Position numbers and translations under genes: made by a program. A stretch of DNA of 64,000 nucleotides from an uncultured Candidatus Saccharibacteria bacterium (GTDB taxonomy: Bacteria; Patescibacteriota; Minisyncoccia; Phycocordibacterales; VMEP01). The notes below the pieces were generated by a model. It saw only the letters and a program-made list of their open reading frames with translations. It had not been told where the DNA came from and ran no database searches. This document shows, piece by piece, positions 3,411 to 34,239 of the stretch (position 1 is the stretch's first letter; each line of letters starts with the position of its first letter). The stretch is from the NCBI GenBank assembly GCA_964579635.1, contig CAZOFV010000002.1, forward strand, positions 1,371 through 65,370, read 5' to 3'.

Positions 3411-3629
3411 GTGCATACATACTTTGTCTCGTTTTCTGTAGTGCGCACCGGCCAACCATCATACCCCGTCAACAGGATTCTCAAACGCAAAGCACCAATC
3501 GTTCTGAATTCGATGGCCGACAAGCTGAGGTTGGAAGACAGTCTGCTCAAAAATTTCTACCGCGGACACACGCGGTATGCCGGCGACAGGTGTGTGCTCT
3601 TTTCCATCCAGCGTCTGCCGCTCGCGTAA
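3411..3629 (+). CDS. GC-rich orphan small protein (72 aa) encoded antisense within the suf operon gap
   Basis: SD AAGAGGAG lies 5 nt before a GTG start; a strong terminator follows. The sequence is GC-rich compared with its neighbours. No recognisable domain. Confidence 0.45.
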   Translation: MHTYFVSFSVVRTGQPSYPVNRILKRKAPIVLNSMADKLRLEDSLLKNFYRGHTRYAGDRCVLFSIQRLPLA

Positions 3630-4450: not shown

Positions 4451-5800
4451 TTAACCAACACTTCCCTCCATCTCAAGCTCAATCAACTTATTAAGCTCAA
4501 TTGCGTATTCAAGTGGCATGGCCTTAACGATAGGCTCCAAAAAACCGCCAACAATAAGGCGTTCTGCTTCTCTCTCAGAAAAACCGCGTGAACGTAGATA
4601 AAACACCTCATCGTCCCCTAGTCGTCCAACTTTTGCTTCGTGAGAAATATTAACCCTCTTATTATCGTTCTTCGTTGATGGGTATGTATTAGAAACTGAT
4701 TTATCATCCAAAATTAATGCATCACAAACAACAGATGACACCGCGCCTGTTGCGCGCTTCCCTATTTGCACAAACCCGCGATAAGTAGAGATACCGCCAT
4801 CTTTAGAAACTGATTTAGAACGAATCGTAGAAACTGTATCCCTCGCCAAGTGTAGCGCTTTTGCACCTGTGTCTTGATTCTGCCCCTCACCGGCAAGTAC
4901 GATTCCTAAACTATCTGCTTTTGCTCTTGCTCCCAAAAGAACAGACGATGGATAAAGCATCGTCACACATGAACCCATATTGCCGTTGACCCACTGCATT
5001 TCTCCGTCTTCATATACCATCGCTTTTTTGGTGTTTAGGTTGTAGGTGTTGCGTGACCAATTCTCAATACTTAAATATTTTACTTTCGCCCCTTTCATCA
5101 CAAAAACTTCCACACAGCCAGCATGAAGCGATGACGATGTGTATCGTGGAGCAGAACATCCTTCGATGTATTCAATCTCTGAACCTTCGTCGGCGATAAT
5201 TAATGTGTGTTCAAACTGGCCAGCAGATGGGCGGTTCATTCTAAAATACGCTTGCAAAGGCAAGCCAACTTTCACCCCTTTGGGAACATAAATAAAAGTG
5301 CCACCGCTCCAAACGGCACCGTGGAGCATGGTGAACTTATGATCAGAAGATGGCACGCAGTCGGTCATAAAATATTTTTCAACAAGCTCTGGATATTTTT
5401 GCACAGCCACATCCATATTCTCAAAAATAACCCCCTTATCAGCAAGTGATTTTTGAAGATTGTGATAAACAATCCCTGAATCATATTGAGCACCAACCCC
5501 ACCTAAATATTCGCGTTCAGCTTTTGGAATTCCGAGCTTTTCAAAAGTGTCAGTTATTTCTTTAGGGAGTTCTTTCCAGTCAGTAGTTTCCTCAACAGAA
5601 GGGTCAATGTAATAAACAAGATCGTCTAAATTGAGCCCTGATAGCGATGGACCCCAATTTGGGATAAGTGTCTCTTTCCACAAAGAAAAGGCCTCTAGGC
5701 GCTTTTTTAGCATCCAAGCGGGCTCATTCTTACTCTCCGAAATATGGCGCACAAGCGCTTCAGAAAGTCCTTTATTAACCATCTTTTCATCTATTGACAT
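4451..5800 (-). CDS. sufB: Fe-S cluster assembly protein SufB
   Basis: 449 aa, characteristic SufB conservation throughout. First gene of the operon. Confidence 0.9.
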   Translation of the reverse strand: MSIDEKMVNKGLSEALVRHISESKNEPAWMLKKRLEAFSLWKETLIPNWGPSLSGLNLDDLVYYIDPSVEETTDWKELPKEITDTFEKLGIPKAEREYLGGVGAQYDSGIVYHNLQKSLADKGVIFENMDVAVQKYPELVEKYFMTDCVPSSDHKFTMLHGAVWSGGTFIYVPKGVKVGLPLQAYFRMNRPSAGQFEHTLIIADEGSEIEYIEGCSAPRYTSSSLHAGCVEVFVMKGAKVKYLSIENWSRNTYNLNTKKAMVYEDGEMQWVNGNMGSCVTMLYPSSVLLGARAKADSLGIVLAGEGQNQDTGAKALHLARDTVSTIRSKSVSKDGGISTYRGFVQIGKRATGAVSSVVCDALILDDKSVSNTYPSTKNDNKRVNISHEAKVGRLGDDEVFYLRSRGFSEREAERLIVGGFLEPIVKAMPLEYAIELNKLIELEMEGSVG

Positions 5801-5876
5801 TGCGACAAATTATATTGTATTATCACGCCAGTTGCAAATTTGATTTAACCCAAACAAAAAGAGGAGGAGAGCTGTC

Positions 5877-6119
5877 ATGAATACTGACTGTGCCAAAGAA
5901 AATGTTTTGAAGGACAACGAGGAATTCGTCGCCTTTCTTCACGAAAACGCGCGTAAAGAAAAAATTCCCGCCACCTGCGACAAGTTGTGGCTCGCCAATG
6001 TTTGGCGGAACAACAGGGGTCTTTTCGCAAACCTCTTCGTTCTGTACACAGGGAAAGCCGTTCTTGTCCCGCAAATCGACTCGTTCTTCCAGCAAGCCGC
6101 CGAGTCGTACAAGGGCTAG
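5877..6119 (+). CDS. GC-rich orphan small protein, paralog 1 (80 aa)
   Basis: SD AAGAGGAGGA before the ATG. Shares the ATCDK and C-terminal FFQQAAESYKG motifs with the downstream paralog. Followed by a hairpin terminator. Confidence 0.6.
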   Translation: MNTDCAKENVLKDNEEFVAFLHENARKEKIPATCDKLWLANVWRNNRGLFANLFVLYTGKAVLVPQIDSFFQQAAESYKG

Positions 6120-6135
6120 CCTTTCCCTTCAACAA

Positions 6136-6165
6136 AAAGTCCCGCATTGTGCGGGGCTTTTCTAA
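6136..6165 (+). terminator. Rho-independent terminator of paralog 1
   Basis: CCCGCA-ttg-TGCGGG hairpin followed by GCTTTTCT. Identical to the copy after paralog 2. Confidence 0.6.
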
Positions 6166-6243
6166 TATTAACGTTTCCAAAAAACGTGATAGTATCACTG
6201 TAGCCGTAACTTCAATCAAATAAACTTAGAAGGAAAACATCAA

Positions 6244-6489
6244 ATGAATACCGCTAGTGTTGCCCCAACAAATGTACTGGAAGACAACAAAGAATTCGTC
6301 GCCTATCTTCACGCGCACTCCAGGGGAAGAAATGTTCCCGCAACCTGCGACAAGTCGTCATTATCCGATTATTGGCAAGGCAATAGACGCTTTTTCGTGG
6401 AAACATTCACAAGCTGTACCGGCAAGGCCGTCAACATCAAGAACATTCGCGAATTCTTCCAGCAAGCCGCCGAGTCGTACAAGGGCTAG
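6244..6489 (+). CDS. GC-rich orphan small protein, paralog 2 (81 aa)
   Basis: SD AGAAGGAAAA before the ATG. About 40% identity to paralog 1, with the last 11 codons and 3' UTR identical. A candidate promoter TTAACG-N16-TAGTAT overlaps the palindrome GTGATAGTATCAC (6186-6198). Confidence 0.6.
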   Translation: MNTASVAPTNVLEDNKEFVAYLHAHSRGRNVPATCDKSSLSDYWQGNRRFFVETFTSCTGKAVNIKNIREFFQQAAESYKG

Positions 6490-6505
6490 CCTTTCCCTTC
6501 AACAA

Positions 6506-6535
6506 AAAGTCCCGCATTGTGCGGGGCTTTTCTAA
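6506..6535. terminator. Rho-independent terminator shared by paralog 2 (+) and bcp (-)
   Basis: Same CCCGCA-ttg-TGCGGG hairpin as at 6136-6165. Confidence 0.6.
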
Positions 6536-6538
6536 TTA

Positions 6539-6997
6539 TTATTTTGTTGCGTCAGCAAGTACTTCGCCAGCATGTTCTTTTGGTTTTACTTCTTCGTAAA
6601 CTTTCTTAATTTTTCCATCTTCACCTATCAAAAAAGAGACACGGTTTGTACCTTCGTATTCACGCCCCATAAATTTTTTCTTTCCCCAAACTTCATATTT
6701 ATTCACAACTTCTTTTTTCTCGTCTGAAAGTAACGGGAATGGTAAATTATACTTTTCACTAAACTTCTTGTGGCTCTTAGTCGAATCAACAGAAATACCG
6801 AAAACAACAATTCCCATTTTTTTGAAATCATCATAACTATCGCGAATAGTACAGGCCTCAGTGGTACACCCCGGAGTATCATCTTTTGGATAAAAATAAA
6901 CCAAAACCATCTTTCCTTTATGGTCCGACAATTTATGGAGATTACCTTCTCCGTCTAGAAGTTCAAAGTCCGGAGCAACTTGTCCTTGTTTTAACAT
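6539..6997 (-). CDS. bcp: Peroxiredoxin Bcp (AhpC/TSA family thiol peroxidase)
   Basis: Peroxidatic Cys motif PGCTTEAC, 152 aa thioredoxin fold. Confidence 0.85.
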   Translation of the reverse strand: MLKQGQVAPDFELLDGEGNLHKLSDHKGKMVLVYFYPKDDTPGCTTEACTIRDSYDDFKKMGIVVFGISVDSTKSHKKFSEKYNLPFPLLSDEKKEVVNKYEVWGKKKFMGREYEGTNRVSFLIGEDGKIKKVYEEVKPKEHAGEVLADATK

Positions 6998-7022: not shown

Positions 7023-8288
7023 CTAATAGTTACGTAATCTGTCCGCCTTCTCGTGCTGGCGAATTTTTTCATGAACCTTAGCTTCAATCTGACGAATACG
7101 CTCACGGGTCACTCCAAACTCCTGTCCAACTTCTTCAAGAGTATGCATCACCCCGTCAACAAGACCGTGTCTCATTTCAAGAATTTTTCTCTCTTTTGGA
7201 GAAAGATCATCTAAAATTTCTTTAACTTGATCGGAAAGAATACGGCGCGAAGATTCTTGCGCTGGTGAAAGAATCGTTTCATCGGCGATAAATTCCCCAA
7301 GAGTTGATTTGTCTTCATCATCTCCAATTGGCTTTTCAAGCGAAACGGTATCTTGGTTGATGTTTTCAATCATGTGAATTTTTTCCACATCAATTCCCAT
7401 CTCTGTTGCGATTTCTTCTGGAAGTGGGTCACGTCCTAAATCTTGAGATAAGCGTCGTGATACTTGTTTATATTTTGCGATTGTTTCCACCATGTGCACC
7501 GGAATACGAATCGTTCTTGATTGGTCAGCAAGTGCACGTGTAATCGCCTGGCGAATCCACCATGTTGCATACGTTGAGAATTTGAACCCTTTAGTCCAGT
7601 CAAACTTATCAACCGCCTTATGTAGACCAAGATTGCCTTCCTGGATAAGGTCAAGAAGTGTTAAGTCTGAGCTACGACCAACGAATTTTTTAGCAATGGA
7701 AACAACGAGTCTTAAGTTTGCTCTCCAGAGCAAATCTCTTGCCTCCTTATCACCCTTTTCGATACGTCGAGCATATTCCTTTTCTTCGTTTGCGGAAAGG
7801 AGTGGGTATTGTCCAATCTCTCTAAGATACATCTGAATTGCATCATAAGAAGATGACTCACGACCATAACCTCTTTTTTCTAAAATTTCTTTGGCATCAA
7901 CATCAAGCAAGTTCCCTCCTTCAAGAACGTCTATTCCAGCACTACCAAAACGCTCGTAAAGTTCATCCAAAAACAAAATATTATTTTCAACGTTTGGAAA
8001 TTCTTTTAAAATTTCGTCATAAGTAATAAAACCTCGCTTCTTACCTTTAGCGATAAGAATGTCAGCTTTATCAACCAAAAGATCATGCTTTGTCTTTTTA
8101 ACAGGCTTTGCTGGCTTTTTCTCCTTAATCGGCTTTTTTACCTTAGCCACCTTTGGCTTCTTTGCTGCGACCTTCTTTTTTGAAGCAGGCTTTTTTACCA
8201 CCTTTTTCTTAAGTGGCTTCTTTGTTTTTTTAACCGTTACTTTTGGTTTTTTTGCCTTTGCTTTAGTTTTTACTTTTGTTTTTGCCAT
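7023..8288 (-). CDS. rpoD: RNA polymerase sigma-70 factor RpoD with a lysine-rich N-terminal extension
   Basis: Regions 2-4 conserved ([10 protein letters not shown]..., the [14 protein letters not shown] 2.4 region, and region 4.2 HTH). About 65 N-terminal residues are K/A/P-rich. Confidence 0.9.
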
Positions 8289-13760: not shown

Positions 13761-16700
13761 TTAATTACGGCGTCTTTTTTTAAGTTCAACATCAAGGGCC
13801 AATCCACGTAGGTAATTCAACATAACCGTAAAGGAAGCTGGAGCGTTTGGCGCCTTAACATCCTCGCCCTTGATAATAGAATCGAACGTCTGTGAACGAC
13901 CGACGATATCGTCTGATTTAACTGTAAGCATTTCACGAAGTGTGTGTGATGCTCCGTATCCTTCAAGTGCCCACACTTCCATTTCACCAAAACGCTGACC
14001 TCCACCTTGAGCTTTACCTCCCAATGGCTGTTGGGTAATGAGCGAGTACGGTCCGATGGAGCGCATGTGAATCTTATCTTCCACCATGTGGTGAAGCTTC
14101 ATGATATACATGTATCCGAGTGCGATTTCCTGATCAAACGAATCACCTGTGCGACCATCATAAAGTTTAACTTTACCAGTCTCTGAAAAACCAGCTTTCT
14201 TAAGTTCGTCACGAATTTCCTGGTCTGTTGCACCTTGGAAAGGAGGAACTATTGCCTGATAATTTAGTGTGTTTGCTGCAAGACCCATGTGAAGTTCCAA
14301 AATCTGACCTAGGTTCATACGAGAAGGAACTCCAAGTGGTGTCAAAATAACATCAATAGGTGTGCCGTCTTCCATGTATGGCATATCCTGCTCTGGCAAG
14401 ATAAGAGAAATAACACCTTTGTTTCCGTGGCGACCTGCTAGTTTATCTCCAACAGAGATGTTTCTAAGCTGTGCGACTTCAATGTGAATTCTTTTAATGA
14501 TTCCACTATCAAGTGAATCACCACTATCACGAGAGAAAACCTTTACACCAACAATACGTCCACGCTTGCCGTGTTCCATACGAAGTGAAGTGTCTTTAAC
14601 ATCACGTGCTTTTTCACCGAAGATAGAACGCAAAAGTCTTTCTTCTGGAGTAAGTTCTGATTCACCTTTTGGAGTAATCTTTCCAACCAAAATATCGTTA
14701 GGGCGAACTTCTGCACCAATACGGATAATTCCATCAATATCAAGATCTTTCAATTTTGCTTCACCAACGTTTGGAATATCACAAGTTGTGACCTCGGGCC
14801 CAAGCTTTGTATCACGAACATTCACAACGAACTCTTCAATGTGGATACTTGTGAACTTGCTGTCTTTGACCAATCTTTCTGAAAGGATAATAGCGTCTTC
14901 GTAGTTCGAACCGTCCCAAACCATAAAGCCAACCAAGACGTTTTGACCTAGTGCTACTTGTCCATGATCAGACGATGATGTGTCAGCCAATATTTCACCC
15001 TTCTTAACACGCTGTCCAACTGAGACTACTGGACGCTGATGGAAAACGCTAAAGTCGTTTGTTCTTGAGTAGTTAACTAAAGTATATTCTTTTTCTTTTC
15101 CAGATTTTGTTCCATCTACTTTAACCTTCTTTGCATCAACATAAGTAACAGTTCCCTCTTCTTCTGCAAGAACTAAACGACCTGTGTAATAAGCAACGGA
15201 GTGTTCCATACCTGTAGCAACAAGTGGAGCTTCTGGGATAATACAAGGTGTTGCCTGCTTCTGCATGTTAGAACCCATGAGTGCACGACCGGCGTCATCG
15301 TGTTCCAAGAAAGGAATAAGTGAAGTTGCAACAGAGAAAGGTTGTGTTGTTGAAACGTCGATATAATCAACGTCGTTTTTATCAACCATACCAGGTTCTG
15401 TTTTAATACGAGCTTCTACTTTCTTTTCTGTAATGTTCCCGTCAGCGTCATAATGAATACCAGCATGAGCAATAACACTTCCTTCTTCTTCAAGAGCGTT
15501 TAGGTAAACAATTTCTTTTGTAATCTTTCCGTTCTTAACCTTAACGTAAGGAGTTTCAATAATGCCGAAATTATTAATTCGAGCGTGTGTCGACAACTGC
15601 AAAATAAGACCGATGTTTTGGCCTTCTGGTGTATGGATAGGACAAACACGACCGTAGTGGGAAGTGTGCACGTCACGAACTTCAAGACCAGCTCTTTCAC
15701 GAGTAAGACCTCCTGGCCCAAGTGCTGAAAGTCTTCGTAAGTGTTCTATTTCATCCAAAACGTTACCCTGACTCATGAATTGAGAAAGTTGGTTTGTGGT
15801 GAAGAATTCTTTTATACGAGCTTGCAGTGGACGTTGATTAACTATCTGAATTGGAAGAGTTGTCTCGGCATCAATAGTAGACATTCTGTCTTGGATATTT
15901 CTCTTCATTTGAGCCATACCAACACGAATCTTTGCTTGAAGCATTTCTCCAACATATCGAACACGTCTTAATCCTAAGTGATCAATATCGTCAGCTTCAG
16001 ATCCTGGAGTGTTATTTAAGTTAGTGATGTGTTCAACAATAAGAACAACATCTTCAAGTGAAAGTGTGCGACGAGCAAGCGCAACTTCTTTCATGTCCAA
16101 ATCAAATCTCTGGTTAAAACGAAAACGTCCAACAGGAGAAAGATCATATCTCTCTTCGCTAAAAATTGACGAGATAAATTCACGAGCATTATCTGCTGTT
16201 GCAAGATCGCCATCACGAAGACGTTTATAAATTTCTATGTATGAATCATCAAGGGTTTTAGCTGGGTCCTTCTCAAGAAGAGCTGTAACCATTTCCTGCA
16301 TTTCTTTACTAAACTTATTTATGATCTCTTTGTCGCTCTTTGTTCCAAAAACACGTAGTAATGATGCAACTGGGAACTTCCTCTTTCTGTCGATACGAAC
16401 AAAGATACCTTCAGCATCAGATTCTATTTCAATCCAAACACCACGTGATGGGATTATTTTTGCACCAAAAAAACGCTTGCCTTTAATATCTTGGTCGTTA
16501 AAGAAAACGCCGAAGCTTCTAGCAAGCTGAGGAACAATAACACGCTCGACACCGTTAATGATGAAGGTGCCGTGAGAAGTCATAAGAGGAAAATCTGCCA
16601 TGAAGATTTCCTGCTCTTTAACAGTGTTAAAAGTCTTGTTCTTTAGTTTGATTGTTGCACGAAGAGGAGCTTCGTAAGAAAGCTTATTTGCCTTAGCAAA

Positions 16701-16979
16701 ATATTCATTATGTTTTGGCTCACTTAAGAAAAAAGAAGTGAACTCAAGATCAAACTTTTTATCAGAATAATCTTTTATTGGAGAGAATTCCTTAAATATT
16801 TCTTTTAGACCTTTTTCTAAAAGCCATTTATACGATGCGACCTGATTTTCAATCAAGTCTGGCATTTCAGCCAATGGTTTTTTCCATGCGGAAAAATGTT
16901 TCTGCTCACGACCGGCACCACTCAATCTTCCCGAAGACCTAGGAAGAATTGCATCCTGGACACGCAATTGTTTTGCCAT
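13761..16979 (-). CDS. rpoB: DNA-directed RNA polymerase beta subunit
   Basis: 1072 aa with conserved beta-subunit blocks. Immediately upstream of rpoC. Confidence 0.95.
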   Translation of the reverse strand: MAKQLRVQDAILPRSSGRLSGAGREQKHFSAWKKPLAEMPDLIENQVASYKWLLEKGLKEIFKEFSPIKDYSDKKFDLEFTSFFLSEPKHNEYFAKANKLSYEAPLRATIKLKNKTFNTVKEQEIFMADFPLMTSHGTFIINGVERVIVPQLARSFGVFFNDQDIKGKRFFGAKIIPSRGVWIEIESDAEGIFVRIDRKRKFPVASLLRVFGTKSDKEIINKFSKEMQEMVTALLEKDPAKTLDDSYIEIYKRLRDGDLATADNAREFISSIFSEERYDLSPVGRFRFNQRFDLDMKEVALARRTLSLEDVVLIVEHITNLNNTPGSEADDIDHLGLRRVRYVGEMLQAKIRVGMAQMKRNIQDRMSTIDAETTLPIQIVNQRPLQARIKEFFTTNQLSQFMSQGNVLDEIEHLRRLSALGPGGLTRERAGLEVRDVHTSHYGRVCPIHTPEGQNIGLILQLSTHARINNFGIIETPYVKVKNGKITKEIVYLNALEEEGSVIAHAGIHYDADGNITEKKVEARIKTEPGMVDKNDVDYIDVSTTQPFSVATSLIPFLEHDDAGRALMGSNMQKQATPCIIPEAPLVATGMEHSVAYYTGRLVLAEEEGTVTYVDAKKVKVDGTKSGKEKEYTLVNYSRTNDFSVFHQRPVVSVGQRVKKGEILADTSSSDHGQVALGQNVLVGFMVWDGSNYEDAIILSERLVKDSKFTSIHIEEFVVNVRDTKLGPEVTTCDIPNVGEAKLKDLDIDGIIRIGAEVRPNDILVGKITPKGESELTPEERLLRSIFGEKARDVKDTSLRMEHGKRGRIVGVKVFSRDSGDSLDSGIIKRIHIEVAQLRNISVGDKLAGRHGNKGVISLILPEQDMPYMEDGTPIDVILTPLGVPSRMNLGQILELHMGLAANTLNYQAIVPPFQGATDQEIRDELKKAGFSETGKVKLYDGRTGDSFDQEIALGYMYIMKLHHMVEDKIHMRSIGPYSLITQQPLGGKAQGGGQRFGEMEVWALEGYGASHTLREMLTVKSDDIVGRSQTFDSIIKGEDVKAPNAPASFTVMLNYLRGLALDVELKKRRRN

Positions 16980-17952: not shown

Positions 17953-18180
17953 CTAGTCATCTGGGGAGACAACACATCCATGGGCCGAATGCCTGCCCAG
18001 TGGGTGCTTCTCTACCAATTCGCCGAGGGTTTCGAAATAATCTTTTGACACTTGCGAATTTTCCGTCCTCTTTGCAAGAGGCTTGATTTCTCCATCTTCC
18101 TCGATACTTCTAAGCGGATCATCATGCTTGCGCCCCGGGGTTGCTTCGTAAATATCGGCCATCAAGGTCATTCGCGCCAT
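17953..18180 (-). CDS. GC-rich orphan small protein (75 aa) sitting where rimM usually lies
   Basis: SD AAAAGGAGAAAA before the ATG (18180). GC-rich. Flanked by hairpin terminators. No recognisable domain. Confidence 0.5.
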   Translation of the reverse strand: MARMTLMADIYEATPGRKHDDPLRSIEEDGEIKPLAKRTENSQVSKDYFETLGELVEKHPLGRHSAHGCVVSPDD

Positions 18181-18225
18181 CACGTTTTCTCCTTTTCGTT
18201 GATCTAAACTATTAACATCATAAAC

Positions 18226-18792: not shown

Positions 18793-19365
18793 CTAATTTG
18801 CGCGCAACGCAGCAGGATCATTGTCGTCCCAGAAGTCGAGACCGAGCCAGTCGCTGAACCAGTACCACCTGCTGCCACTCCGGCCGAGGTAACGAACGTA
18901 CAGACTATCACCGGGGTGGCGGTAGATCGTGCCCCAGAAGAACACATACTTGCCTTTCCATTCCTCGGGAATGAGGTGCGGATGAGCGAGCAGGTAGTCA
19001 AGGATATTCGCGTTTAAGACAGGCTTGCTGACGAGTTCCTTACGGAGCTTGTTGCCTTCCATCATTTTGCCGTTCTGCTGTCCTTCGGCAAGAAAAAGTT
19101 CGATCTGTGAGGCATCAAACTTGAACTGTCCGCCCTTCTGATGCTCTTCGACTTTCCAGCCATCAGGAACGAAAGGGGCAGCATCGCAGTCGATGGTGTG
19201 TTCTACCTGCGTGATAGTGGCGTAGCCGAGCCGCACTTGTCGCACCCTGGCGAGATTACCCCCAGTTGCAAGCCAGTCGAGATCGGCGACATCGGGAATG
19301 CCGTTGCGAAGAAGAGCTTGTTTGATTTTGTAGGCAAGTCCAACATCGAGTGTGATATCACTCAT
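18793..19365 (-). CDS. GC-rich orphan protein (190 aa from the ATG at 19365; the ORF track starts at an upstream TTG)
   Basis: SD AAAGGAG lies 6 nt before the ATG. About 55% GC. W-rich C-terminus (SRWYWFSDWLGLDFWDD). Inserted between rpsP and the KH gene. No recognisable domain. Confidence 0.55.
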   Translation of the reverse strand: MSDITLDVGLAYKIKQALLRNGIPDVADLDWLATGGNLARVRQVRLGYATITQVEHTIDCDAAPFVPDGWKVEEHQKGGQFKFDASQIELFLAEGQQNGKMMEGNKLRKELVSKPVLNANILDYLLAHPHLIPEEWKGKYVFFWGTIYRHPGDSLYVRYLGRSGSRWYWFSDWLGLDFWDDNDPAALRAN

Positions 19366-19430
19366 TAGAGTCTCCTTTGCGACATCGAGTCTGTGAGTAG
19401 ACAAATAGTCGCTTTAATGCCAGCGGGCTT

Positions 19431-22684: not shown

Positions 22685-22975
22685 CTAAATTGTGAACGGA
22701 GTATTCATCATTTCTATGAATTCTTTTTCTCCGACCTTAGGAACATCATCTCCCGCATGAAGATACTGCCTGCCACACTTACGACAAGCCGCAGTGCGAT
22801 AAAGGAATGCCCCGTTAAACCAGCCGGAAACTTCGCGCACAACATCCCCACCGCAATTTTCCGCCTTGCACTTATTGCCAAGGAAGGGAGTATTTTCTTC
22901 CCGGAATACCTTCCTGGCCTTAAAAAACCTGGCCAAGTTTTCCTCAGACAGCTCAGGAAAATTTCTATTGCCCAT
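22685..22975 (-). CDS. GC-rich orphan zinc-ribbon protein (96 aa)
   Basis: SD GGAGGG before the ATG. CKAENC...CRKC cysteine pairs. GC-rich. Confidence 0.5.
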   Translation of the reverse strand: MGNRNFPELSEENLARFFKARKVFREENTPFLGNKCKAENCGGDVVREVSGWFNGAFLYRTAACRKCGRQYLHAGDDVPKVGEKEFIEMMNTPFTI

Positions 22976-25382: not shown

Positions 25383-25416
25383 AAAAAAAATGGGCCCCGC
25401 GTGATGCGGGGCCCTT
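25383..25416 (-). terminator. Rho-independent terminator of the 220-aa orphan
   Basis: GGGCCCCGC-gtgat-GCGGGGCCC hairpin followed by a T-run on the minus strand. Confidence 0.6.
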
Positions 25417-25434: not shown

Positions 25435-26094
25435 CTAAAACTTGGGGATACGCTCCCCGACGACAATTGCACCATCGAGCGGTTCCGGCGTCGGGAAATG
25501 ATGAACGTTCTTCATTCCCTTCGGTATGAACGGGTCGCGCCCTTGAACGACGCGCCATTCATGAGTCGGGAAACGTCCGACTTCGGTCTCGCGCGGGAGA
25601 ATGAACAGGTCTAGGTAGAGATATTTCCTGCCATCTTCGCAACGCTTCATCCAGACTTGCGCATTGCAAACCACCTTTTCTCCGGCAAACGGTCCCGGAT
25701 TATGGGGGTGGTAAACGTGAATGTTCATCACGCCGCCTTTCACTGGGCGGAAAAAGCGAAGATAGTCATTACCCCCGTTCACCCCGGCCTTGTACTCCGC
25801 CATGTCCGGAATCTTCACCGAAAACAGCGCCTTTGCGTCAGACCACAACAGCTCGCGAGAAGCGACGCCATCGGACGAAACAACCTTCTTCGGCATTGGT
25901 GCCGGCGCGGGTGCCACTACCGCTTTGGCTTGGTCGGCCTTTTGCGCCACCTTGCCGTTTCCCTTCTTGGCTTTTTCTGCCCTTTCGTTTTTTGCCTTTT
26001 TGACCTCCTCGATCTTCTGGGCTCTTGCCTTCGAAGCCACTTTCGGAAAAAACATCCCGAGCTGTTCGGCCATGCCAACGTGCTGTCCACTCAT
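25435..26094 (-). CDS. GC-rich orphan protein (220 aa) with a Lys/Ala-rich N-terminal region and an unknown C-terminal domain
   Basis: SD CTAAGGAGGAAAACC before the ATG (26094). The ORF track starts earlier at a TTG. No recognisable domain. Confidence 0.5.
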   Translation of the reverse strand: MSGQHVGMAEQLGMFFPKVASKARAQKIEEVKKAKNERAEKAKKGNGKVAQKADQAKAVVAPAPAPMPKKVVSSDGVASRELLWSDAKALFSVKIPDMAEYKAGVNGGNDYLRFFRPVKGGVMNIHVYHPHNPGPFAGEKVVCNAQVWMKRCEDGRKYLYLDLFILPRETEVGRFPTHEWRVVQGRDPFIPKGMKNVHHFPTPEPLDGAIVVGERIPKF

Positions 26095-26187
26095 GGTTTT
26101 CCTCCTTAGGAAAAATGTTTGAAAATACAACGATCAATAATGCTCTTAAGATTAAAGCATTTTTATGCTAATTTGTCAAACAAAAAA

Positions 26188-34032: not shown

Positions 34033-34239
34033 ATGACTGTTCCTAAGAGAATCTTTGAAGACACGTGGGTGAAGGGAAATTTCCTGATCCCGGCAGACAA
34101 GAGCGTTCGGACTGAACTGCGACAACAGCTCGAAAACTACTCGCGCGCCGGCGTCATGTTCGTACCAGGAAACGAGGAGGTGCGATCAATCCTGAAAGCG
34201 CGTATTGCCGCAATTGATGCCTACGATACCGTGAGATAA
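34033..34239 (+). CDS. GC-rich orphan small protein (68 aa)
   Basis: SD AAAGGGGGTG before the ATG. GC-rich. A hairpin terminator follows. Confidence 0.5.
   Translation: MTVPKRIFEDTWVKGNFLIPADKSVRTELRQQLENYSRAGVMFVPGNEEVRSILKARIAAIDAYDTVR

Follow-up and report, generated by a model that had tools for sequence, protein, structure and literature searches.

Old duplicate genes with segments held identical within a genome by gene conversion are known from tufA/tufB-type concerted evolution, and in tandem paralogue arrays under concerted evolution, or orphan cassette arrays, copy number shifts through recombination between repeated flanks. A locus with both properties is described here from the 64-kb window, the whole stretch of 64,000 nucleotides (nt) of contig CAZOFV010000002.1 that was analysed. 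Two small open reading frames (ORFs), A and B, stand in tandem between sufB and bcp, and judged from their sequences they are paralogues. Both would belong to an orphan protein family whose founding unit was inserted beside sufB, duplicated in tandem and then partly homogenised by gene conversion. This genetic and evolutionary account, which comprises real genes, a clade-specific insertion, tandem duplication and gene conversion, is considered highly probable. Coordinates of all features are collected in the Table.

An exact block of 83 nt is common to the 3' ends of the two units. It is made up of 36 nt of coding sequence, ie the last 11 codons (FFQQAAESYKG) and a TAG stop, and 47 nt of 3' untranslated region (UTR). 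The original prediction, made by a model from the sequence without database searches, had given the identical 3' end as 11 codons and roughly 55 nt of 3' UTR including a hairpin terminator; the codons and the terminator were borne out, and the UTR portion was shorter than claimed. Alignment of the two loci and calculation of the ratio of nonsynonymous to synonymous divergence (dN/dS), both proposed at the time as a check, gave a body diverged to 60% nucleotide identity next to the identical terminal 83 nt. By segment, A and B are 98% identical in the 3' UTR, 100% in the final 36 nt and 65% in the ORF body. In 20,000 column shuffles of the A/B alignment the longest identical run did not exceed 38 nt, compared with the 83 observed (P<=5e-5), and synonymous sites outside the block are saturated, with a synonymous divergence (dS) of about 1.1. 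A body at that dS, yet with 83 nt identical, supports the suggestion of tandem duplication with 3' gene conversion. The alternative description, a 'repeat-bounded module', is loosely apt, but the repeated stretches are terminators and promoters that belong to the units themselves, not the boundary of a mobile element. A template/target pair of a diversity-generating retroelement was rejected as a source of the pair; the A/B differences span all base types, and a reverse transcriptase was never specifically searched for.

Related loci, designated L001 to L012, show the same behaviour with other letters. Paralogues within one genome share a genome-specific 3' sequence in L001, in L009 and in copies a and c of L006. 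Both copies in the window carry ...GAGTCGTACAAGGGCTAGCCTTTCCCTTCAAC... there; all three copies of L001 carry TAGCCCTTCCCCGCCCA..., with 3' UTRs 92-98% identical among them, and both copies of L009 carry GAAGCCTATCAAGGCTAG(C/T)TCTCTTCCGTCCCAACC. Internal promoters, compared within L001 and between L001 and the window, show 88-99% identity: the promoter B region of the window is 88% identical to those of L001, and the upstream flanks of L001 copies b and c are 99% identical. The sufB-proximal promoter region is the same regardless of the paralogue type downstream. The homogenised segments are thus more alike within a genome than between orthologues and have diverged flanks, the pattern by which gene conversion is recognised, and the genome-specific 3' ends and internal promoters are best read as the signature of recurrent conversion seeded in the most conserved segment. 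No 3' homogenisation is seen in L006 copy b and L007, and the process therefore appears episodic rather than a fixed constraint. The possibility that the identity is an artefact of assembly, raised with the original prediction, was judged from independent assemblies rather than from the reads of the window. Matching architecture is found in such assemblies (L001/L002; L009/L010/L011, three data sets), and because they repeat the pattern with other genome-specific 3' sequences an assembly artefact is an unlikely source of the 83-nt identity.

The positions and sizes first given for ORFs A and B were correct, and the motifs EFVA(F/Y)LH, ATCDK and FFQQAAESYKG are present as described. Their protein identity had been underestimated at about 40%; it is 56% (45/81, E=4e-31). 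The family was sampled as 17 units from the window and nine related assemblies (L001, L003-L007, L009, L012). All 17 are open throughout in the sense frame, and no other of the six frames is free of stops in all of them. Between paralogues dN/dS is 0.15-0.4, with saturated synonymous sites. Between orthologues it is 0.12-0.2 over the full length, ranging from 0.03-0.18 in the core (residues 11-43) to 0.2-0.9 in the variable residues 44-69; the corresponding value for sufB in these genomes is 0.02. AlphaFold2 predicted four helices and a disordered N-terminus for both proteins, with a predicted local distance difference test score (pLDDT) of 89.2 and a predicted template modelling score (pTM) of 0.78 for A (4-sequence alignment), and 89.9 and 0.79 for B (18 sequences), and the two models agree. 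Family proteins are soluble, carry no signal peptide and have isoelectric points (pI) from 4.8 to 9.2. The sense frame being the only one open in 17 units, the low dN/dS and the confident models together indicate that A and B are true protein-coding genes. Both further checks attached to the original prediction, for conservation with a coding signature and for a predicted structure, came out in favour, the first with orthologues in relatives under purifying constraint and the second with two concordant four-helix models.

It is very improbable that the region is instead non-coding, its transcripts being structured RNAs or its open frames a by-product of GC-richness. A GC-rich stretch in an AT-rich genome does yield long ORFs in several frames, and the mRNAs are predicted to fold stably, but the unique opening of the sense frame, a dN/dS well below 1 and the confident models all speak against it. 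Nor did positions 5700-6600 match any Rfam 15 family at its gathering score (best 16-19 bits, against gathering scores of 42-57; weak matches at E >= 0.18). The non-coding reading is largely refuted. Antisense or dual coding was rejected on account of stops in the antisense frames of most units, and stop-codon readthrough into the pyrimidine-rich tract that follows each ORF was rejected because neither the type of stop nor the downstream frame is conserved. The exact protein sequence of ORF B is missing from a collection of 15 billion proteins that does include ORF A, with NCBI as its origin; the source record therefore probably leaves ORF B unannotated.

Neither protein matched Pfam or NCBIfam at E<=1, and Pfam searched with 16 members gave no consistent match (best E=0.078, one member each). 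There was no match in PHROGs (best E=0.23) or PADLOC, no family member among the viral contigs of IMG/VR, and an exact search of GTDB representative genomes for the spacer came back empty. Among PDB sequences a profile search picked up ribonucleotide reductase R2 (E=0.62) and nothing else; Foldseek found no hit for either model in the PDB (best E=2.7), and none in BFVD (best E=1.8). Profile searches of 1.84 billion cluster representatives, all of which were read, and of 5.8 billion protein clusters recovered three members and 17 clusters of the family, respectively. One locus is from 'Parcubacteria group bacterium LiPW_30' and another member is labelled Candidatus Paceibacterota, and among the data searched the family appears to be restricted to one Parcubacteria/Paceibacterota clade. 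The protein family is new to the databases searched; duplication with gene conversion is a familiar phenomenon. A literature search on leaderless and Shine-Dalgarno (SD) usage in the Candidate Phyla Radiation (CPR)/Patescibacteria, and on tandem small proteins of Parcubacteria, found nothing relevant.

Wherever a locus is long enough to judge, sufB and rpoD flank the family, and both run on the strand opposite to it. There is one copy in L004, L005 and L012, two in the window, L007/L008 and L009/L010/L011, and three in L001 and L006. The short contig L003 opens with the terminator of a preceding unit, ahead of two copies, and its array is therefore probably of at least three. The last family copy of L003 (718-957, +) has no terminator, and an unrelated ORF of 79 amino acids (aa), MFKTIEEGFAVYK..., begins 6 nt past its stop, which suggests a further variant of the locus. 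Clustered at 90%, the SufB proteins of the family genomes form two groups, which are 99% and 94% identical to SufB of the window; the next SufB beyond the clade, from the outgroup L013, is 81% identical. In L013 rpoD and then sufB are adjacent on the same strand, with a spacer of 146 nt and no small gene between them, and the family is therefore taken as a clade-specific insertion into that spacer.

A distance tree resolved at least four paralogue types common to several genomes: alpha (window A, L004, L005, L006 copy c), beta (window B, L006 copy b), gamma (L006 copy a, L007 copy a) and delta (L003 copy a, L007 copy b). L009 copy a and L012 were put in alpha by sequence and by their low nonsynonymous divergence (dN) to L005, and are not in the tree. 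Since the types are common across genomes, the duplications predate the divergence of those genomes. The order of types is alpha-beta in the window and gamma-beta-alpha in L006. The window and L001 have a sufB dS of 0.33 and yet share no close orthologue among their cassettes (dS at least 1), which implies gain, loss and replacement of cassettes.

The sequence of events would then be as follows. An ancestral unit, with promoter, ORF and bidirectional terminator and with a strong SD site in a leader of some 45 nt, would have been inserted antisense into the rpoD-sufB spacer in one genus-level lineage of Parcubacteria/Paceibacterota. Tandem duplication of whole units would have generated arrays of 1-3 copies, whose paralogue types are old and were gained, lost and re-ordered among strains. 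Gene conversion within a genome would have repeatedly homogenised the internal promoters and the 3' end, which takes in the last 8-11 codons, the pyrimidine tract and the terminator; the 83-nt identity in the window would be the latest such event. Each copy is probably transcribed and translated independently.

The turnover of cassettes invites the proposal that the locus is a polymorphic conflict locus of immunity-, antitoxin- or anti-defence-like binders, in which the face of helix 3 tracks a diversifying partner. A copy number of 1-3 with cassette sets that differ among close relatives, proteins that evolve fast relative to sufB, variation focused in residues 44-69 and the N-terminus, and a promoter and terminator for every unit would all fit. 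However, no toxin, nuclease or secretion gene adjoins the array in any locus, PADLOC is silent, no immunity protein in the PDB, colicin-type or other, has a matching fold, pairwise dN/dS never reaches 1, the variable region included, and the position is fixed between two housekeeping genes. We regard a conflict locus as unlikely.

In every family unit a sigma-70-like promoter is followed by some 45 nt of leader containing a strong SD site, and the terminator has A- and T-tracts on its flanks. The SD sites and promoter-like boxes claimed for both ORFs were confirmed, promoter B being the weaker (8/12 against 11/12). Its score is under the threshold of the scan; it was read by eye from the sequence and aligns with promoter A. 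The -35 of promoter A overlaps the start codon of sufB (5800-5798, minus strand), and the promoter A segment is conserved in L001, L004, L005, L006, L007, L009 and L012. A putative promoter for sufB lies on the minus strand inside the 5' UTR of copy A, with its -10 ending 8 nt before the ATG. sufB has no SD site, and with the -10 so near the ATG it is apparently leaderless or nearly so. This putative minus-strand promoter is kept in all sufB-proximal copies, as part of a segment of about 45 nt which is accounted for by the two overlapping promoters and codons 1-3 of sufB. The internal copies keep the plus-strand promoter and have all lost the minus-strand -10, and most the -35 (TTGCAA is retained in L009 copy b and L006 copy c). 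Such decay is expected if the whole unit was duplicated and the relic of the sufB promoter then degenerated. The predicted start sites of copy A and of sufB each fall at the other's -35, so that simultaneous occupation by two polymerases is implausible. The chance that the two promoters interlock in this way is put at about even, and if they do, RNA polymerase should occupy only one of them at a time.

A divergent position with overlapping promoters raises the question of whether the family regulates the suf operon, as a small factor that senses metals or thiols and acts at the interlocked promoters in a role like that of SufR or IscR. Copy 1 is always divergent from sufB, the conserved polar residues include His, Cys, Asp, Glu and Tyr, and L014, a more distant member of the Parcubacteria with a SufB 78% identical, has an unrelated 75-aa protein with weak winged-helix similarity at the matching position. 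The proposal is nevertheless improbable. Pfam detected no helix-turn-helix or winged-helix domain, the pI is far from uniform, the single conserved Cys is lost in L001 copy a, and a regulator of a core operon would not be expected as 1-3 divergent, shuffled paralogues. Comparison of the loci found no conserved inverted repeat or operator in the suf promoter segment either. The perfect palindrome that had been noted over the second promoter is present, but the suggested operator role was not upheld: it consists mostly of the TGn extended -10, the TAGTAT hexamer and a conserved CAC, is perfect in the window and its close relative L001 only, becomes 5-1-5 in L009 copy b and is absent in L003, L006 and L007. 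Given so lineage-specific a distribution, support for an operator is weak. An inverted repeat in the spacers of the internal promoters (ACGTTT-5-AAACGT; GTTTTCGAAAAC in L009 copy b) could be a candidate binding site.

L014 in fact has two unrelated proteins of about 75 aa opposite its suf genes, one of them divergent upstream of sufB. Their similarity to winged-helix domains is below threshold and they are possible suf regulators. Homology of the family to these sufB-adjacent genes was rejected (hhalign probability 0.1%); small genes at that position are therefore not unique to the clade, though not homologous.

The setting had been described as a divergent gap between two oxidative-stress and Fe-S genes. 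sufB is indeed divergent from ORF A, but bcp is convergent with ORF B, and the functional framing found no support beyond position, bcp being a neighbour of the array in the window only. In L001, L004, L005, L009 and L012 bcp is not at this position and the last terminator leads straight to rpoD. The sequence upstream of bcp is of the leaderless type (TAAAAT, 6 nt, ATG).

Terminator A is flanked by an A-tract and a T-tract and is therefore probably bidirectional; the scan called its hairpin on the minus strand only (6155-6141), and the plus-strand reading comes from its identity to terminator B. The pyrimidine-rich tract directly after the stop is found in nearly all terminator-bearing units. 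Its sequence varies (CCTTTCCCTTC, CCCTTCCCCGCCC, CCCCTCCTCC and others), and in L012 it is short (TCTTCGCC). Pairing of the tract with the SD region of its own unit is possible, at energies (-8 to -17 kcal/mol) that often surpass those of shuffled controls. Specific covariation of SD site and tract was rejected, as own pairings were no better than cross pairings. Among the other GC-rich orphan ORFs of the window no post-stop tract was seen.

The GC content at third codon positions (GC3) of the family is 0.60-0.65, compared with about 0.3 in neighbouring genes. Six other GC3-rich (0.47-0.65) ORFs of the window are likewise orphans with no Pfam match. Four small ones whose flanks were inspected (3411, 17953, 22685 and 34033) have a strong SD site and a GC-rich terminator, and 3411-3629 and 22685-22975 have a TTGAC-type -35 too. 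The AT-rich housekeeping genes (GC3 about 0.25-0.37) have essentially no SD site, and in many of them a -10-like hexamer stands 6-9 nt upstream of the ATG. Assuming a canonical anti-SD, the mean SD:anti-SD energy was -9.6 kcal/mol for six small GC-rich ORFs and -0.85 kcal/mol for 35 AT-rich genes (Mann-Whitney p=7e-5). The window seems to hold two gene classes, leaderless-looking AT-rich housekeeping genes and SD-led GC-rich orphans. GC3 is high across lineages with saturated dS and is therefore maintained, for which biased gene conversion or selection could be the cause.

Might the units simply be moron-like foreign genes from an unsampled phage or other donor, which merely persist and whose GC-richness and SD sites reflect their origin? 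The contrast in GC3, the strong SD sites in a genome whose housekeeping genes have none, the autonomous promoter-gene-terminator architecture and the absence of the units from the nearest outgroup are all in keeping with this. Yet no homologue was found in IMG/VR, BFVD or elsewhere outside the clade, a GC3 of about 0.6 that is maintained is not the fading signal of an import, and purifying selection shows that the host uses the protein; a foreign origin of this kind is thus doubtful. Equally speculative, and not to be expected, is a broader scheme in which the array would be the clearest example of a distinct class of GC-rich orphan micro-genes, each with a sigma-70-type promoter, long leader, strong SD site and GC-rich terminator, set among AT-rich, SD-less housekeeping genes of leaderless appearance. 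Such genes could have a separate translational regime through the SD site and, in this family, the post-stop tract, and the strain-variable four-helix proteins could serve in stress or in conflict with phages or between symbiont and host as accessory factors, with the interlocked promoters switching expression against the suf operon.

One of the other orphans, 3411-3629 (+), is conserved. It encodes 72 aa and lies between a short sufD-like gene and sufS, on the opposite strand, and has counterparts in L004, L005 and L009. In the outgroup L013 the sufD-sufS spacer is about 50 nt and is without this gene. SufD is 418 aa in L013 and 222-232 aa in the clade (227 aa in the window); clade SufD therefore lacks the N-terminal half. 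Two terminators of other orphans recall the family's own: the hairpin CCCCGCATCACGCGGGG (25395-25411, -) after 25435-26130 is the one used by the family in L004 and L005, and the terminator of 17953-18183 (AAAAGTCCTGCGAACGCGGGGCTTTTTT) resembles it.

Positions conserved in the family (ORF A numbering) are N14, L21, H22, R26, P31, C34-D35-K36, L39, W43, F54, T58 and F70, and towards the C-terminus A74, A75, E76, Y78 and G80; residues 44-69 and the N-terminus are variable. The conserved polar residues could bind a metal or a partner. Our best guess, a tentative one, is that these are small binding or accessory proteins of the cytoplasm, in which the variable face formed by residues 44-69 would determine the partner. 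A link to Fe-S or redox metabolism, suggested by the position and the conserved His, Cys, Asp and Glu residues, is held with low confidence. The three competing functions considered above (suf regulator, conflict binder and moron) have similar, modest probabilities.

Taken together, an orphan family that was inserted, duplicated and partly homogenised, with the promoters and function proposed here, has a probability of about 0.6. Several points lower it. Selection on the C-terminal motif and terminator, instead of conversion, might account for part of the 3' identity; the answer to this is that synonymous and spacer positions which are identical within a genome differ between genomes. The promoters, start sites and mutual exclusion derive from consensus matches alone, and no match by homology or fold gives a function. 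The absence of Cys34 from L001 copy a, together with the spread of pI, argues against a uniform metal site and a DNA-binding role.

Table. Features of the array, its neighbours and related loci. Positions are those of the window unless a related locus is named; scores out of 12 are from the promoter consensus scan.
Feature	Position	Strand	Remarks
ORF A	5877-6119	+	80 aa, 'alpha' type; orthologues L004, L005, L006 copy c, L009 copy a, L012
ORF B	6244-6489	+	81 aa, 'beta' type; orthologue L006 copy b (= P0004), 69% identical
Identical block, copy A	6084-6166	+	11 last codons, stop, pyrimidine-rich tract, terminator
Identical block, copy B	6454-6536	+	same content as copy A block
Promoter A (predicted)	5794-5823	+	TTGACA 5794-5799, 18 nt, TATTAT 5818-5823; 11/12
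Promoter B (predicted)	6168-6195	+	TTAACG 6168-6173, 16 nt, TG-a-TAGTAT 6187-6195; extended -10
Putative sufB promoter	5809-5837	-	TTGCAA 5837-5832, 17 nt, TATAAT 5814-5809; 10/12
SD of copy A	5861-5869	+	GAGGAGGAG; SD:anti-SD duplex -11.9 kcal/mol
SD of copy B	6228-6236	+	AGAAGGAAA, weaker than that of A
Pyrimidine-rich anti-SD-like tract	6120-6130, repeated 6490-6500	+	CCTTTCCCTTC, directly after stop codon
Terminator A	6135-6161	probably both	AAAAGTCCCGCA-TTG-TGCGGGGCTTTT; A-tract/T-tract flanks
Terminator B	6505-6531	both	called on both strands; also closes convergent bcp/rpoD transcription
Palindrome	6186-6198		GTGATAGTATCAC, overlaps extended -10 of promoter B
sufB	4451-5800	-	divergent from copy A; Pfam SUFBD_core, E=3e-74
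bcp/peroxiredoxin	6539-6997	-	convergent with copy B; Pfam AhpC-TSA, E=4e-42
rpoD	7023-8288	-	conserved right-hand neighbour of array
GC3-rich orphan ORFs	3411-3629, 34033-34239	+	no Pfam match
GC3-rich orphan ORFs	17953-18183, 18793-19404, 22685-22975, 25435-26130	-	no Pfam match
72-aa orphan counterparts	L004 3541-3759; L005 1882-2145; L009 5258-5476		between sufD-like gene and sufS
L014 small proteins	L014 5707-5934, 7607-7831	-	one divergent upstream of sufB with SD, other in sufB-sufD spacer

Elsewhere in the related assemblies, rpoB of L001 (17040-20246, -) is called as two genes, a 185-aa part and a larger N-terminal part, and is a single ORF of 1072 aa in the window (13761-16979) and in L009. 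The split in L001 may be real, or it may stem from a frameshift or an assembly error.

The family adds to the CPR a confidently folded orphan protein with no sequence or fold relatives in the libraries searched, and its arrays document recurrent, segment-limited gene conversion in a very small genome. The tandem pair by itself is an ordinary outcome of duplication and concerted evolution. The possible split between leaderless housekeeping genes and SD-led GC-rich orphans would bear on translation control in reduced bacteria.

Compared with described systems, the unit resembles a phage moron in being a self-contained transcription unit of atypical GC content in a spacer which is empty in the nearest relative. 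The autonomy and composition are those of a moron, but the units are chromosomal, between rpoD and sufB, without prophage context or viral homologues (IMG/VR, BFVD). With the immunity (Im) gene arrays of colicins and pyocins, and with orphan immunity genes, the family shares helical proteins of about 80-85 residues, tandem arrangement, strain-variable content and a conserved scaffold with a variable helix. It differs in having a promoter and terminator for each copy, in showing no sequence or Foldseek similarity to Im7/Im9-like proteins, and in having no cognate toxin alongside, the neighbours being sufB, rpoD and, in the window, bcp. SufR and IscR are likewise divergent from sufB with overlapping promoters, but have a winged-helix domain and a multi-Cys set of cluster ligands, whereas the present proteins, of about 80 residues and in multiple divergent paralogues, show neither (Pfam; one nearly conserved Cys). 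As for the arrays under concerted evolution, the likeness lies in the process and the difference in its reach: homogenisation here extends over about 75-155 nt, at the 3' end and in the internal promoters only, and the ORF bodies stay 55-65% identical at the nucleotide level and sort by type across genomes.

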